This document shows positions 135 through 64,000 of a stretch of 64,000 bases of DNA, piece after piece (position 1 is the first letter of the stretch; the number at the start of each line of letters is the position of its first letter). The stretch covers positions 19,160,001-19,224,000 of the forward strand of contig NC_087245.1 of NCBI RefSeq assembly GCF_037042905.1, read 5' to 3'. A program made the position numbers and the translations under genes. Origin of the DNA: Lytechinus pictus. Lineage: Eukaryota. The notes below the pieces were generated by a model that was not told the origin of the DNA, did not search any database, and was given only the letters and a program-made list of their open reading frames with translations.

Positions 135-51280
<51,146 letters not shown>

Positions 51281-53070: not shown

Positions 53071-54665
53071 CTGATAGGACCCAATTTGTATCAGTAAATA
53101 ATAGCAATTCGACTACTCTTCCAATTACTTGCGGTGTCCCACAGGGTAGCCTACTAGGCCCACTTCTTTTTATTACTTATTTATATTAAAAATACATCAA
53201 ATTTACTTTCATTTATACTTTTTGCTGACGACTCCAATATTTTCTTTTCCCATGATGATATTAACCAACTCGTTAGAATCGTAAATTTTGAACTAACAAA
53301 TGTTACAGATTGGATCAAGGCCAACAAACTTTCGCTTAATCACCAGAAGACAAACTACATGCTTTTCAGTAATAAAATCAATACTCTACCTGACAGTATT
53401 TTCTTTGATAATTTCGTTCTTAATAATGTTTCCACTACCAGATTCTTGGGTGTCCTTATTGACGACAAATTATCCTGGAAGCCTCATATCGATAGTATAT
53501 GTAAAACAATTTCTAGAAACATTGGAATTATTAATAAACTCAAACATTTTCTCCCTTCCCGCACTTTGTTAACATTATATTACACCCTTATTCTACCAAA
53601 TATTAATTATGGAATTATTGCCTGGGGATGTGCAATACAAACACAACTAAATAGAATATTACTTCTCCAGAAAAAAGCTCTAAGAATAATTTTTCAAACA
53701 CACTTTAGATCACATACTGATATCTTATTTTTTGAAAATAACATTCTTAAAGTAAGTGACATTTATCTTTTCGAACTTAGTCAATTTAAGTTCAAATTAA
53801 GCAATGACGACCTTCCCGCCATTTTCTCTAATATGTTCCGTAAAATCACATTCGTACACTGCTACCCAACAAGGCAACGACAACATTATCATCTCCCTTT
53901 AACAAGAACTTTATTTGCAAAGAATTCATTTGTCTTCTCTGGGCCTGCCTACTGGAACTCTCTGCCTCAAGATTTCAAAGAATCCCCCAATGTAAATATT
54001 TTTAAACGCAAACTGAAAAAATGTTAATTCTGCAATACTCGTCGCAAACAGGTCAAGCTGAATAACTAATTTAATTATACTCGACTTTTGTGTATATGCG
54101 TATTATATGCGCTCATATTATATACATAGTCATGTATATTATTCGTTTAATTATTTTCTTCTTAAAATTGCAATTAGCCAAAGTACCTGCTCCTGCATGC
54201 TGCCCGGCTTCTTCTTTCTTTCTACTTAGTGTACTGCACTCCTCTGTCCCTCCTGTCTCCCCCCTCACCCCCTCTCTTATAATATTGTAAAACGTAATTT
54301 TTTCTCACACGATCCATCAGTTACGTTTTTGTCAAGTGCACAAAAATTGTTTGTATTTATTTTTAAACAAAATTATTATTAAGACCCAATATTTATTTGT
54401 TGTAATTTTGTAATGTAACTAAGATAGGGGCTTGTCTCTTGTACAAGCTTTGTTTTTTTTCGGCAAGTCCCTCCGTTTTACTTATAAATACAAATGTCAT
54501 TTGAGATATCTTTATTTACTGAATTGTGTTCCTTAAATCTATGATTATGTTATATACAGTATATTATATTTTGTCTTGTAGTATTTTCGACCTTGTTATG
54601 TTATGTTTATCATATTATGTACAATTGTGAAACGGAAATAAATAAATCAAATCAAATCAAATCAA
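53071..54665 (+). mobile_element. 5'-truncated LINE (CR1/L2-clade) with partial reverse transcriptase
   Basis: CGVPQGSLLGPLLF and ILFADDSN RT motifs (frameshift between them) lead into ORF 53359..54027 (FLGVLIDDKLSWKPHI, LLLQKKALRII, YWNSLP); 3' tail aataaa(tcaaa)n. Confidence 0.9.
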
Positions 54666-57400: not shown

Positions 57401-58887
57401 TAAATACTAAAATCATATGACATAATAAAAATTAATTCCAATTAAACTGAAAAACTCAAGGGTGCCCTGTTTGAAAGCACATATGGACATGCTGTCCAAG
57501 ATGTAGGTACGATCTTCATAAATAAGCTCCTAAAGTTACCCAAAATAACTTTATTTATTATAATTTTTTTTTCTAAACATTTAACCATGTTTAGCCCTTT
57601 GTGCTCTTTTTTCAGATCTTGCCCCCCGAGAAAAATGAACAAAAAATAACAAGCAACCATTCAGCGCATTTTTTCTGTTTTTTTTTTACACACTCGGTAC
57701 TTACGAGTTGCGAGAAAGCGATGAGAGGGGTGAAACTATTGAGGAAGAGGCGGAGGAAGGGTCAAGAAGTTGGCAGATTTCAATTTTTATTAATCATTTA
57801 ACGATACCACACACAGATCGAAAATCTTAGCAACAACGCAAACAAAATGGCCAGACGTCGACTGTAAATTTATTATATATTTTGGTTTCAAACGTTAAAA
57901 TCTGGGTAAGAATCGTTTATTCATACGCATTTATTGTAAATGGTATTTATAATTCACTTAACAATTGAATGAAATTCATGAAAATTTGTGGAATATGCGA
58001 GAAAGAGTGCAATAGAGAGATGATCCGATCGTCGACGTCGGTTCACAAATACTTACCTAGTGAGTTAGGCAACGGTAAAGGCCCGTTTACACCGCATCCG
58101 GCACGGCGACCGTGCACGGCACCACGGCAATCCGGCACGGCAAAAAAAATCGATCCCCACTAAATCCTATGAAACTGTTTCCACTTCAACGGTGCCGTGC
58201 CGTATTGTACAACACGGCGTAATTTGCCGGATTTGCAGATCGATCAGCAAGCCATTTTCAGAGCACGGCACACGGTTTTTTCACTTCTGGCCAATCACAG
58301 TCCAGATAAATTACGTCATTGCCCACATATTTTCTGATCAAGCGACAAATCGCCTGCGGTGATAGTCTATGGGAGTTTACGTGTTAAATGCAAAATCGCA
58401 CATACACGTAGGTCTACGTGTATTACCTGCTGAAGAGAGGTGACTGAAGGAGGACTTGATCTTGCAATTCTTGGTCTGGTAAGCAACTAATTAAGAACAA
58501 GTGTCATTTCGCATACTGTAGAACCGAGCCCCAGAAAGTAGAGCACAAGAAAATAAGGCCAAATAATATAAGGCCGGCCTGGGATAGGGCCTAACGTTAT
58601 GATCTAACGAAGATCTAACGTAAGTTAGCTTAGCCTAGGCTTAGGCTTAGACTCGGTCTAACTCTAAGTTCTAACAAGATATAGGCTCCTATCTAATTTA
58701 GATAAGCTAGATGTTTATCCTAGCCTAAGTTACATCTAGATCTAACGTTATAGACCTAATGTTAGACTCGATAATCAATTAGACTGGCCTAACGTAATTA
58801 GGCCGGCCCTAGGCCTACTAGGCCTACTAAGTACTATCTAGGCCTAGTAGGCTACTAAAATAAAAAAAGTTAGGACTTGGGCCCTAA

Positions 58888-59296
58888 AGATAAATGAAAG
58901 TAGTTGCAGGAAACACTGATTTCACGAGAAAGTGTGTAAAACCGAGCTTAATTGTCACTATATAATCGAGGATCTAGATCTGGTACAGTTACATGAACTG
59001 AACTTTGTGAAATCTTGAAATCTACGCTGAAAAATGTTCATACTGAAGATCACCAACACAGATAAGCGCACGTGGGACAGTGTACTATTAAAAATTATTG
59101 CTTTGAATGTCGGCCCGACGCTTGACCCAAATCCCGTGCTTATTTGCTAATTTCTCAGCAATTACACAATTTCTTCCGGAATCCTTTGGCACATATTTTT
59201 TTATTTATACAAACAGACACTTTGGTGGTCATTTCATTGGATTATGTAAACTGTACGAACTCATTTTGAAATCGTTACCACAACTGGCATTTATCT
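58888..59296. mobile_element. Kolobok-like MITE nested in the Harbinger-like element
   Basis: ctaa|agataaatg..agttg ... caact..catttatct|ttaa. Confidence 0.6.
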
Positions 59297-60826
59297 TTAA
59301 CTTAAGTTAAGTTAGACTTAGTAGAGTCTAACTAACAGTAACAGTAACATTAGGCCTAACGTTACTAAGTTATAGTTAGATCTAACGTTAGGTAGACCTA
59401 TAACTAACGTTATCAAAAGTTAGACCTGTTGTTGGTCTAACGTTAGGCCTCAGTAGTCTAGAGTCTACACATAGGTCTAACGTTAGTAACACTAGTTTAT
59501 GTAAGTTAGACCTCTGAACGAATATGATGAATTCCGGGATGAATTATTTATATTAAGATATAGACTAGCCTAGCCTAGTAGTAGTACTTTAGTTTTAGTA
59601 GTAGGGTCTATAATAGATGAGAGCTAGGCACTGAGTCGTTTTGTCAGCAGCAAGAGTGGCAGATAGGAGGGTGGCAAGGAATTAATAAGAGGGGATCTGG
59701 AGTGGTGAAACTTGGGTAGCCTGAACTGAAAGAAGTTAGACCGATTGCTCAGTTTGACCATATTTTTGTGGGACCCTCTGGTCGATCTGTTCTAGATCGA
59801 AACAAATGGTGGAAGGCTAAGGAGTAAGGCTAACTTAGTTATTTCCCACAAACTCTCTGGCAAAGACTAGGCCTACGAATAAATAATGTAAAAACCTAGA
59901 CTCTAAGTCTAAATCCTCCCCATATGACGTCATACTTAGGCTTAGCTAATTAACGTTAGACATTGTTTTCATTGAAATATAGAGTCTAGGCCTAGTAACT
60001 AAATTTAGGCTACTATAATTTTGGAGAGAACTTGCATTAAAAAAAGTTATTGTTTCTAGTTTGTCAAAAATTGTCAGTCTGTTATTATGTAAAGGATTTT
60101 AAAATGAGCGCACTTTCCTTTATCCAGGGGCAGCTCAATCGTGGGGCGATGGGAAGGGGTTTGGGTTGGCACTGGTTTGCCCGAAATAGAAATCCCCCAG
60201 AATAAAAGTGATCCCTTTTCAATATGAAATATGTCCTTTGTGTGCTGGCATAACTTTTAAATCTGCACATTTCTGTTCCAAAAATTGATTGCTTTATTTG
60301 TGTAATTTCATTCTTTTTTCATTGGTTTATTTCTTATTTGGTTTTTTTTTTTTTTTTTTGGGGGGGGGGGGCTGAAGTGATTGGGTACGTATACTATACA
60401 GAGAAGACATAATTTGCTGACATTTTATTCAACAAACATTTCATCCCTAAAAAAACATTATATGGCTTAGCTTATAGGCTCTCATGGAGGCAAAAAATTG
60501 TGCCTCTATCTTTTTTTTTCTTAACATGACCCTATGTTTACATGTACTTTTCAAATGATAAAAAATTATTATTTCAAGCTCTTGAAGGAATTTCTAGACG
60601 ATCACTTTTCTCTACAACTAAGCAAAATCATTTCAATTAGGAGAATTTCTATTTGTGCATTATAAAAATTGGACCCTGATCAGCAAGCCTGCCAGTTACA
60701 ATGTAAATGTAAGAAATTGCTGATTGGGCACTGGCCTTTCACTAATCGCTTTTGCAATTCTTTAAACCTTTATTATTATTTGCTAACAAAATTTATATGG
60801 AATGTGTTGCATGACAGATAACCAAC

Positions 60827-62413
60827 ATGGAGGAAGCCCTTATCCTAGAAGTGTAGGAAAATCCATTCCTGTATGACAAGAGATTGGAGCTGTTCAAGGA
60901 TACAGAAGTAAAAAAATGATGTATGACATGACATTGGGCGTCAGCTTGTAATCTCAGGTTGGTATAATTTTACGTCATATTAATTTTTTTCAAACTTCAC
61001 GATTTTTTCACTATCAATTTGAAGAAAAATATTGAACAATGTAAAAGAGTTATATTTGTATGTGGATGTTTGAAAGCAAATCAAGTTCACAATCTAACAA
61101 CTGTAGCTAACTTCTGGTTGTTGTAATTCAATGAATACCAATGGTAAGTTTTGGTCATTGTGGCCATTTTTGAAATTGTTTGCACATGTGTAAAATAGTC
61201 TGGTGTTTAAAAAAAATAACAAATTAAATGAGACACAAGAGCAAGGGTATGTTAATGCAGAAAGAGACCTTGCTTTGTGATGTGGACCAAAAAATATATA
61301 CCAACCCCTCCTCACAAATACGTAATATAAATATCACGTCACTTTTACAAGCAAAAAAAAAATGGAGGCAAAATTCTTTACTATCAAAAGCATGTTGTCC
61401 AATTTCACATTGAAATATTTCGGGGGGGGGGTGGGTAGGGCTTGAAATGAGTCATAAACAGAAATGAAAATTTTCAGAGGTTATAGGAATTAGATTTCGT
61501 GTTGTTTTTCATTATTTTAAGGTGACGTAGCGAGTTGAGGGACAACTTCCTAAAAAACGACAGAAATCGAGAGGAAGAGTGGTGACGGAGCTCCCTCAAA
61601 TGCAGCACGTAAATACAAGTACAGTGAGGCAATGGAATTCCTACTTCCCCACATACATAATCGAGAGTAAGATATTCAATATTTTGTTTTCTTATCCCAG
61701 GGAAGAGAGAATATGTGTATATCAATTTGAATTCATGCAAAGAAATGTATTTTATAAATATGAATTCTGATATTGTGCTTCACTTAACCCAGGTTTAGTT
61801 TCTGGGTTCTGACAGGAAACGGTCGGGCAACAGCTATGGTATTAATTTGCACTTTGTGCACTCTGCAGGGTGGATATGAGCGCTCTCATACAAACTATAC
61901 AAATCATTTTGAATTATACATTGATGATTGTCTCATTCTCTCATGTTTACATTAACCCGTTTCCTGTAATTATACATCCACATTTTCATTCAATATGATT
62001 TATCATATTTGTACTTGACTACCTGTGTAAAATAGTACAGGTTAATGGGTGTTGCATTTCCTTGAAGTGAGAGCCATTTGCCTTCAGAAAATTACCCTTA
62101 AAAAAATATAATATAATAAAATAAAACTAAAGATGTTTCGAATATTAATGAAGTAAAGAACAGACAAACTGTATCGACTTGGTACATGAGAGTCGATTTT
62201 TTTAGTATTCATTATTATGAGTAAAACATATGAAATAAATTTGAACATATGATTTTTCTGTCAGCAGAACAAGTTCAATCTTGGATCCTGTGTTTGATGT
62301 GGACACACCAGGAGAAGCCTGTACCAAGCAGGAAGAAACTGAGCAGGAGAATGGTGGGTGACATCTGTCCACAACGTGGGTCAGTCTTCCTCGTCATCAT
62401 CCTCAGGCACGTC
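60827..62413 (+). pseudogene. Decayed MADF (Myb/SANT-like) DNA-binding protein gene; exons ~60827-60957, 61522-61666, 62268-62413
   Basis: MEEALILEV*ENPFLYDKRLELFKDTEVK(fs)DV*HDIGRQL / LRDNFLKND(fs)RKSGDGAPSNAARKYKYSEAMEFLLPHIHNRE / TSSILD; GT-AG introns with compatible phases; stops and frameshifts. Confidence 0.75.
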
Positions 62414-63105
62414 TATGGCGCGCCATTTGTTTCATAAAGGCGATAAACTCAGTTTATCGCCGAAAAACCTAGTTTATCAATCGAAAAACCTAGTTTTTCA
62501 ATTGAAAAACTAAGTTTTTCGCCGATAAACTTAGTTTTTCGCCGATAAACTAAGTTTATCACTTGAAAAACTAAGATTATCAAGAAAAACTAAGTTTATC
62601 GCCGAAAAACTTAGTTTTTCGATTGAAAAACTAGGTTTTTCTTGATAAACTTAGTTTTTCAATTGAAAAACTAAGTTTATCGTCGAAAAACTAAGTTTTT
62701 CACTGATAAACTAAGTTTTTCAATGAAAAACTAGGTTTTTCAATGAAAAACTAGGTTTTTCAATGAAAAACTAGGTTTTTCAAGTGAAAAACTTAGTTTT
62801 TCTCGATAAACTTAGTTTTTCAAGCGATAAACTCAGTTTTTCATTTGATAAACAGAGTTATTTGATAAACTAAGTTTTTCAAGTGATAAACTAAGTTTTT
62901 CGAATTGAAAAACCTAGTTTATCGAATTGAAAAACCTAGTTTATCGAAATTGAAAAACCTAGTTTATCACTTGAAAAACCTAGTTTATCGCCGATAAACT
63001 AAGTTTTTCAAATCTGATAAACTAGGTTTTTCAATTTCGATAAACTAGGTTTTTCAATTCGATAAACTAGGTTTATCGCCTTTATGGGACAAATGGCGTT
63101 CCATA
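62414..63105. mobile_element. MITE filled with palindromic minisatellite units
   Basis: TIR tatgg.gcgccatttgt..cataaaggcgataaac / gtttatcgcctttatgggacaaatggcgttccata; interior of GAWAAAC(T/C)(A/T)(A/G)GTTTWTC units. Confidence 0.75.
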
Positions 63106-63377
63106 AGGACGCCATTTGTCCCATAAAGGCGATAAACTCAGTTTATCGCCGAAAAACCTAGTTTATCGAAATTGAAAAACTAGGTTTTTCGATTCGATAA
63201 ACTAGGTTTTTCGATTTGAAAAACTAGGTTTTTCAAGTGATAAACTAGGTTTTTCAATTTCGATAAACTAGGTTTTTCGATTCGAAAAACTAGGTTTTTC
63301 GATTCGATAAACTAGGTTTTTCGATTCGATAAACTAAGTTTTTCGATTCGATAAACTAGGTTTTTCAATTTCGATAA
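63106..63377 (+). mobile_element. Second left end of the same family, abutting the first copy
   Basis: acgccatttgtcccataaaggcgataaactcag followed by the same unit array, then unique sequence. Confidence 0.65.
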
Positions 63378-64000
63378 TCAGGGTTATTTACTGTAAGCCA
63401 GTAGTGGGCGCCATTCGACCCTGGACATGGAGAATATTGGAAGGCTCTAAGTTTGATTTTGAGTTTTTCCCCCCTTTTTACCGGACCGGAGAACAAGATA
63501 TGATTCTGTATATTTAATAGAAAAGATTATGAGCAAGATTCAAGAAATTAGCCAGCGACCTTATTTGTTGAGGGATAGGAATCCTAACGTTAACCAAATC
63601 TTCGTCGGTGACTCGAGCCGGTGCAATGAACAATGTGAGTGGGTCATACGGTACCAGCGCCTGAGCAGAGCAGCCCGGGGCGTCGTCGGGCGAAAGTTCG
63701 GTCGAAAACGTTGCTACAGCTACTGTCGGTGAGCCGAAACAGCCAAGCCGGAGTCCGCAGAATTGGTAAAGCCTATGGATAAGATTATAGAAAAACTAGA
63801 CCTACGGTACTGAATACTAAATATCACTACCATGAGAAAGGGTATGGCCATGGATGAATTTCGTTAGTCATTGACTGCAAGGGCAATGCTCGCCAAAAAA
63901 AGCTTAAGTTAAGACAGATCTGACACAAATAATTCTGGATCTATAACTTAGAGTTTCACGATAGAAAAATGAGCTTGCTCATATATGGCGTTGAGAAAAA

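Follow-up and report, generated by a model that had tools for sequence, protein, structure and literature searches.

Excision of Tc1/mariner transposons leaves a footprint described as TA, the first or last 2–4 nt of the element and a second TA, for example TACAGTA/TACTGTA for Sleeping Beauty (in the part of PMC6943129 cited here) and TACATA/TATGTA for Tc1 (in the part of bioRxiv 10.1101/2025.10.09.681459 cited here). Here we analyse words of a comparable build in a patch (58560–60015) behind the first exon of a PIF/Harbinger-like element of Lytechinus pictus. The patch lies in a 64-kb stretch of contig NC_087245.1 (19,160,001–19,224,000), which we call the window and number from its first letter. 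Like the footprints, the words consist of TA, fixed bases and TA, include 7-mers in two orientations and show no templating by their flanks. Their cores (ACGT, GGCC, GATC, GGTC, GACTC), however, match no end given in the cited parts of those sources, and unlike the footprints they are packed at ~43 per kb into one intron and tied to promoter-proximal DNA. They behave like footprints of Tc1/mariner elements, yet an assignment to that class is not warranted.

Other precedents concern promoters. In medaka and zebrafish, 6-mers in the linkers of hypomethylated promoters have been read as causes of nucleosome positioning with a 200-bp period, and their origin is left open in the sections cited (Nakamura et al. 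2017, PMC5607494); indel rates behind medaka transcription start sites (TSSs) are also ~200-bp periodic (PMC4653950, in part). Our patch is similar in carrying TA-containing words without a known factor behind a promoter, and GGCCTA (medaka rank 17, no known factor) and CTAGTA (rank 20) are common to both (PMC5607494), as is the CTAAC that the top medaka linker word, GCTAAC, has in common with the top 7-mer of the patch. Patch counts are 16 for GGCCTA, 4 for CTAGTA, 2 for GCTAAC and 0 for GCTAGC, ACTAGA, CTAGCA and ATGCTA. In contrast to the medaka linkers, the patch has no 200-bp period and an apparently high turnover, and TAACGT and AGATCT have negative weights in the part of the medaka data cited. 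Insertions at open-chromatin sites of the germline, mostly tandem duplications of a local motif (Kaiser et al. 2021, PMC8559717, in part), resemble the patch in a promoter-proximal pile-up that builds motif clusters, but the cores here are not copies of their flanks. At human CpG-island TSSs the ZFX/ZNF711 motif AGGCCTAG is enriched 240 bp to either side (PMC5848610, in part); the same 8-mer stands in the patch in 7 copies downstream of a CpG-rich start, though it is one among several different words and extends across 1.1 kb. Literature searches by motif and concept, which did not extend to subscription journals, showed among the titles listed none that describes such words as promoter-proximal insertions.

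Enriched words in a spliced first intron

The first-pass annotation had described the DNA around a nested miniature inverted-repeat transposable element (MITE) as largely built from TA-bounded motifs and had proposed a promoter-proximal hotspot. We find that the motif mosaic is a real feature, lies behind a real first exon and is part of a wider two-class pattern. The words fall into three clusters:

58585..58854, motif patch A: 15 words, 106–375 bp from the donor
59298..59577, motif patch B: 21 words, the densest, with chains such as TAGGCCTAACGTTA and TAGATCTAACGTTA
59831..60012, motif patch C: 9 words, separated from patch B by 250 bp free of words

Word counts in 58560–60015 were compared with 1,000 dinucleotide shuffles of the same DNA. 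There are 8 copies of TAACGTTA (shuffle mean 0.05), 6 of TAGGCCTA (0.07), 8 of TAACTTA/TAAGTTA (1.11), 6 of TAGCCTA/TAGGCTA (0.62), 4 of TAGAGTCTA/TAGACTCTA (0.07) and 3 of TAGGTCTA (0.17), each a count reached in 0/1000 shuffles, and 2 of TAGATCTA (0.09), reached in 2/1000. TAGACTA/TAGTCTA, which had also been listed as a patch motif, is not enriched (2 vs 0.83, 206/1000 shuffles) and drops out. The five words originally named occur 66 times in the window, 26 of them in the patch; the best other 1,456-bp window holds 9 and the median is 0. None of the enriched words falls inside the nested MITE. The top 7-mer of an unbiased count is GTCTAAC (10 vs 0.09 expected), and TA-NNNN-TA spacing occurs in the patch at twice the expected number (42 vs 20.9), a doubling seen for neither TA-N-TA nor TA-NN-TA. 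The phrase "largely built from" proved too strong: the words are present and enriched, but 45 hits of an 11-word list, matched exactly and partly picked after viewing the sequence, cover only 30% of the 1,043 MITE-flanking bases; the two stretches with the highest density reach 38% and 58%. The absence of a fixed period holds, with Fourier power ≤0.6 at 150–260 bp and 0.2 at 200 bp after MITE removal, for a single locus and at low power.

The position of the words relative to their host element and its gene follows from these features:

58076..58078, +, TAA target site of the host element, read from the sequence; an X6 contig is common with the window from 58076 on
58079..58201, +, left end of the PIF/Harbinger-like element: terminal AGGCCCGTTTACAC, subterminal GGCACGG at 58100, 58134 and 58195 (reverse)
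58291..58318, +, CCAAT box and TTACGTCA site, putative internal promoter
58400..58478, +, non-coding exon 1 (3' end exact, 5' end approximate)
58479..60817, +, intron 1 (GT..AG, 2,339 bp; 1,926 without the MITE)
60818..60957, +, exon 2 of the MADF gene: ATG at 60827, in-frame TAG at 60854–60856 in this copy
61522..61666, +, exon 3 of the MADF gene: GT..AG joint 60955–61520 (cut +2) in an X1 contig (depth 56.8) and in 1 X23 read

Splicing was judged from Logan contigs of X1, an exon-enriched run whose kind is not on record, and X23, a raw RNA run. Intron contigs of X1 begin at 58449 and 60930, and their ends lie at 60846 and 61549. Those four ends are, exact to the base, the k=31 branch points predicted for introns 58479–60817 and 60958–61521. 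The 58478/60818 joint is not among the matches listed (15 of 128), and its splicing is read from the contig ends. X1 depth climbs from 12.5 at 58363 to 44.7 at 58441 and stands at 26–77 in exon bins and at 3–6 in most motif-region bins. The GTAAG donor that had been placed at ~58479 is correct and begins at 58479. With the MITE removed, 45 of the 47 words of 58079–62400 lie 106–1,114 bp behind this donor, two lie just upstream and none further down (no word was found in 60013–62400), so that the splicing evidence bears out a position just after a first exon. Observed/expected CpG is 1.18 upstream (58079–58478), 0.59 in the patch, partly through the words' own CpG, and 0.31 in the distal intron.

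PIF/Harbinger elements have a TWA target and a MADF gene (PMC13668399, in part), and the host element, with its TAA and a putative MADF gene, fits this superfamily. Its TAA, visible on the left side, is common to a copy with another flank: an X6 contig has 0 differences over 58076–58486 (411 bp) and a different sequence before the TAA, so the element family has recent copies elsewhere. An X1 contig also starts at 58076. The MADF match is weak. Exon 2 aligns with positions 1–25 of PF10545 at E = 0.0096 and 16.7 bits, below the cut-off of 22 (a 30-aa piece with X at the stop), and an atlas lookup of exon 3 gave MADF clusters as a weak lead (0.77). In contrast to complete elements, only the left end is seen here, and the transposase gene is outside the window or missing. 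The right end lies outside the window, in which no second terminal copy with ≤3 mismatches was found besides 45093, and the 64 kb hold no second copy of the element.

The same words at other putative 5' ends

All 13 copies of TAACGTTA in the window lie in four CpG-rich spots: 8 in the patch, 3 at 18923–19371, of which two form the arms of a single foldback, and one each at 49526 and 63585. The words recur behind two further putative first exons:

18923..19827, another patch of these words, lying 140–1,040 bp behind a donor proposed near 19963 on the minus strand; its exon is predicted from sequence only
49513..49539, chain of four different units sharing TAs, with cores GACTC, GATC, ACGT and GGCC, in the predicted intron 1 of the host gene (minus strand)
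51280 down to <300, −, host gene, long and multi-exon, with a putative first coding exon at 51280–51230

The second patch sits inside a 10.7-kb TA-flanked element. The chain is ~460 bp from the host-gene donor once a 1,226-bp foldback is subtracted. No Pfam hit, atlas hit or homologue at E <= 0.01 among 58 candidates was obtained for the host gene, which may resemble neurobeachin-like proteins. Small clusters of the same words at 1798–1950 and 63585–63950, near CpG-rich spots, may mark further promoter-like sites.

The CpG-poor introns of the host gene carry a different word, TACATGTA, in 51 copies. It had been called essentially absent from the patch. No copy is indeed present there, against 1.3 expected at the window mean (P0 = 0.27). 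This absence is not significant alone, and the contrast between TACATGTA and the promoter words gains meaning only window-wide. With 58001–60000 left out and only CpG-free words counted, the ratio between 24 CpG-rich and 38 CpG-poor kb is 12:5 for promoter-class words and 6:51 for TACATGTA (Fisher P = 3e-6, a value that overstates independence because the words are clustered). The suggestion of a different class from TACATGTA is therefore borne out as a segregation by CpG class.

A three-unit chain pattern was found in 31 metagenome stretches (19 after merging duplicates) and 1 viral contig, whereas prokaryote genomes totalling 596 Gb yielded a single match. Seven of the 19 independent metagenome loci hold further clustered words at a level reached in 0/200 shuffles; the other 12 miss this mark (L016 at 4/200, the remaining 11 at >=32/200). 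In L023 the cluster (53–166) lies in front of open reading frame (ORF) 1 of an element with an endonuclease ORF, which is the 5' region of a long interspersed nuclear element (LINE) type. The L014 cluster (160–1804) flanks a TGACGTCA site and a GTAAG donor and is dominated by 15 copies of TAGATCTA, whereas TAGGCCTA-type words dominate in L017 (1059–1400) and L025; this difference indicates that the vocabulary mix differs by lineage. No firm gene start was read in L009, L017, L022 and L025, an exact search of the metagenomes for the exon-1/donor 26-mer gave 0 matches, and blastn of the window against the 32 loci gave none.

Unit grammar and the origin of the words

Comparison of flanks bears on how the cores could have been made. 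For none of the 49 promoter-class octamers of the window do both flanks repeat the core in tandem or fold-back fashion, none of 45 words has a 3–9-bp flanking duplication, and only 3 cases out of 32 show palindromy reaching more than 1 base beyond the TA. The cores were therefore not copied locally, whether in tandem or by fold-back. TA, a fixed core and TA, untemplated by the flanks, is the form of a footprint, but five 9-mers have a 5-nt core, outside the range of 2–4. Half-sites of TAACGTTA carry C before or G after the TA in 20 of 26 cases (background 0.36), which suggests a C-TA-G target and explains its mostly sitting on GGCC, GATC or GGTC units. The AC half pairs almost only with GT (12 vs 0.5), and asymmetric words occur in both orientations. 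Among 44 neighbour pairs, 13 are different words sharing a TA and 4 are identical units. That every insertion creates new TA targets, as had been proposed, is compatible with these chains, but chaining (28/45) fits iterative insertion at random TAs (null mean 0.51; 261/2000 reach 0.62), and a special effect is neither proven nor needed.

Several other sources were tried and rejected. Six-base tandem duplication (hAT-type target remnants), fold-back of flanks and TAG..CTA mini-elements with their own duplication are ruled out by the flank comparison. Telomerase addition is not reflected in the counts of GGTTA (0 vs 3.9), GGGTT (0 vs 1.9) or TTAGGG (1 vs 1.3). Transition decay of TAGGCCTA is unlikely as a source of hybrid words, with the CpG-bearing TAACGTTA intact 12 times and decayed twice, and so is an RNA-level role through branch-point-like CTAAC, which occurs 14 times on the plus and 12 times on the minus strand.

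We give about an even chance to the reading that the patch consists of small insertions of fixed sequence at TA that accumulated in open promoter-proximal DNA, probably as transposon excision footprints. Each event would turn TA into TA-core-TA, with ACGT, GGCC, GATC or GGTC/GACC as the core, or a form one base shorter or longer, and such events would gather within ~1.1 kb downstream of a promoter active in the germline. The words would be end-joining footprints of TA-targeting cut-and-paste transposons that favour open, unmethylated promoter-proximal DNA, as some Tc1/mariner elements prefer open chromatin near TSSs (PMC7913693, in part), and their families would be distinct from the CA..TG family that may leave TACATGTA in CpG-poor gene bodies. 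Each scar would add a TA on which later events could chain, and a few units may then have been doubled by slippage. Footprints derived from one end only would permit non-palindromic cores. A transposon origin of the words is plausible and unproven; an insertional process tied to promoters, whether by transposons or by templated repair, we regard as likely.

Candidate donors are present for part of the vocabulary. The first-pass annotation had attributed the footprints to a TA-targeting class, and TA-flanked elements with GG..CC and with CA..TG ends do occur in the window, but no clear AC..GT or GA..TC donor. The CA..TG type is the 10.7-kb CpG-rich element at 15964–26705, with 20/20 inverted ends beginning with CAGTA and TA on both sides; the GG..CC type is a TA-flanked foldback MITE in two copies (47808–48284 and 44585–45070).

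The turnover between copies was compared in X6. Its contig over 59519–60211 differs first by 12 gap letters and no substitution; a 36-nt insert follows at 59814, and then come 6 gap letters and 3 substitutions, the second piece being exactly 6 letters shorter; in all, the 694 bp of patch region show 18 gap letters plus the insert and 3 substitutions. Five contigs from motif-poor DNA (2,211 bp) show 6 gap letters and 10 substitutions, so that substitution rates are equal in both regions and gap letters far more numerous in the patch. Alignment to another copy, suggested earlier as a way to recognise copy-specific insertions, thus yields a gap excess in a near-identical copy but no gap placed on a motif. 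Among the matches listed, no X6 contig covers patches A and B, the MITE apart. In the related copies of X11, depth falls with word density (rho −0.47, P = 0.02, 24 bins): five of the six bins with >=3 words have depths of 0–45, the sixth, only partly patch, has 595, and word-free bins have 128–932. One X11 contig skips 59872–59949.

A number of observations weigh against excision footprints. About 40 insertion-excision cycles per kb would be required. No clear donor with AC..GT or GA..TC ends was found in the 64 kb, save an ambiguous 102-bp foldback. Of 10 GTCTAAC copies only 3 have a closing second TA, which a pure footprint model does not explain. Matching partners make up 13 of the 26 pairs between GG/GA/AG and CC/TC/CT halves (~10 expected by chance), and this near-independent pairing is not predicted by footprints of 2+2 nt from perfect terminal inverted repeats, while one-end footprints would need several more families. 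Counted as minimum gap events, the X6 difference is 3 vs 2 (P = 0.09), with no gap localised to a word, and holes in Logan contigs prove nothing, as they may come from filtering. X1 is identical to the window over 58449–58994 and 59272–60329. In five metagenome haplotype pairs, selected for sharing the match, 0 of 10 gaps are TA-core-TA units. Outside the MITE, X23 has a mean depth of <3 per strand and its reads do not pile up at a start, which points to weak expression there at most.

Some of these difficulties would disappear if breaks in open germline DNA were repaired with inserts templated from nearby motifs, by polymerase-theta-type joining, template switching or inverted duplication; a few seed words would then be copied and reshuffled locally, promoter-linked and with no transposon excision. 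Templated repair accounts for the mixed halves and the unclosed GTCTAAC, for the short tandem arrays at 58591, 58628, 58737, 58809 and 59333 (including GCTTAG x4 and CTAGGCCTA x5.3) and for the word-bearing foldback at 18922–19029, and in human spermatogonia 5–20-bp insertions at open sites often duplicate a motif (PMC8559717, in part). Yet the cores are not copies of their immediate flanks, only the 4 of 44 neighbour pairs are identical, and the same small vocabulary stands at unrelated loci and in other organisms, where local copying needs a common seed; we consider such repair a tentative, rather unlikely alternative. The tandem arrays, together with (TAG)n-like runs near 59575, would also suit decayed microsatellite or low-complexity DNA made by TAG/CTA slippage without any special process. 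That explanation is already largely refuted by the spacing and flank tests and seems to us very improbable, given the doubling of TA-NNNN-TA and not of TA-N-TA and TA-NN-TA, and exact palindromic cores, in both orientations, that make up the same words at independent promoters.

Selection offers a different kind of account, in which the words are functional cis-elements, either homotypic factor sites or linker-positioning words, like ZFX AGGCCTAG or medaka GCTAAC. Besides the 7 copies of the ZFX 8-mer, GGCCTA reaches 15.3/kb in the patch vs 0.40/kb elsewhere and is the rank-17 linker word without a known factor (PMC5607494), and medaka linkers have a lower SNP rate (same source, in part). Cis-elements do not explain why several different cores all have TA borders, nor the absence of a 200-bp period; related copies conserve no part less well than the patch, and TAACGT, AGATCT and TCTAAC have weights of −0.62, −1.07 and −0.25 in the cited part of the medaka data. 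We find this account distinctly unlikely.

If the words are scars, a mutational process and not selection would build motif clusters behind promoters. The causal reading of fish promoter-linker motifs would be reversed, with caution due before such clusters are called transcription-factor sites; transposon families or repair routes would be sorted by chromatin state, and invertebrate genomes would offer a sequence-only marker of germline-active promoters. A broader and more doubtful proposition is that animals share a germline process writing TA scars specific to chromatin state, TACATGTA in methylated gene bodies and TAACGTTA plus TAG-RY-CTA words in open promoter-flanking DNA, transposon promoters included. 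If true, the fish linker 6-mers, and possibly the human ZFX +/-240 AGGCCTAG, would be products of open chromatin and not its cause, and genome sequence alone would be a fossil map of germline promoter activity. The question is directly testable because recent near-identical copies of the element each replicate the same promoter.

Nested and neighbouring elements

The MITE between patches A and B is bounded as follows:

58888..59296, high-copy Kolobok-like MITE with ends AG..CT, CTAA on the left (58884–58887) and TTAA on the right (59297–59300)

Loose contig ends lie at 58885 and 59300 in X23, X1 and X11, with X11 depth up to 1.5 million, and the sequence common to MITE copies spans 58885–59300. 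Kolobok MITEs have a TTAA target and RR..YY ends (PMC9587614, in part); this element agrees in its ends and right TTAA and differs by the CTAA on its left. It appears to have landed inside the motif cluster.

Further elements touch the words elsewhere in the window. The 15964–26705 element is inserted among TACATGTA words in a host-gene intron and is a candidate donor type for TACATGTA; the GG..CC foldback MITE is a candidate donor type for TAGGCCTA. Each arm of the 108-bp foldback at 18922–19029 carries TAACGTTA joined to TAGGTCTA, and the whole may be an inverted duplication or a tiny AC..GT element. The 1,226-bp TA-flanked foldback at 49726–50951 has CC..GG ends and nested inner foldbacks and lies in the first intron of the host gene. 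Fragments at 53158–54027 and 36384–36677 read as LINE-type ORF remnants, presumably from the C-terminal part of LINE reverse-transcriptase ORFs. Finally, an array of 20–22-bp palindromic units (AAACTAGGTTT-type) at 62441–63377 forms foldbacks in or just past MADF exon 4.

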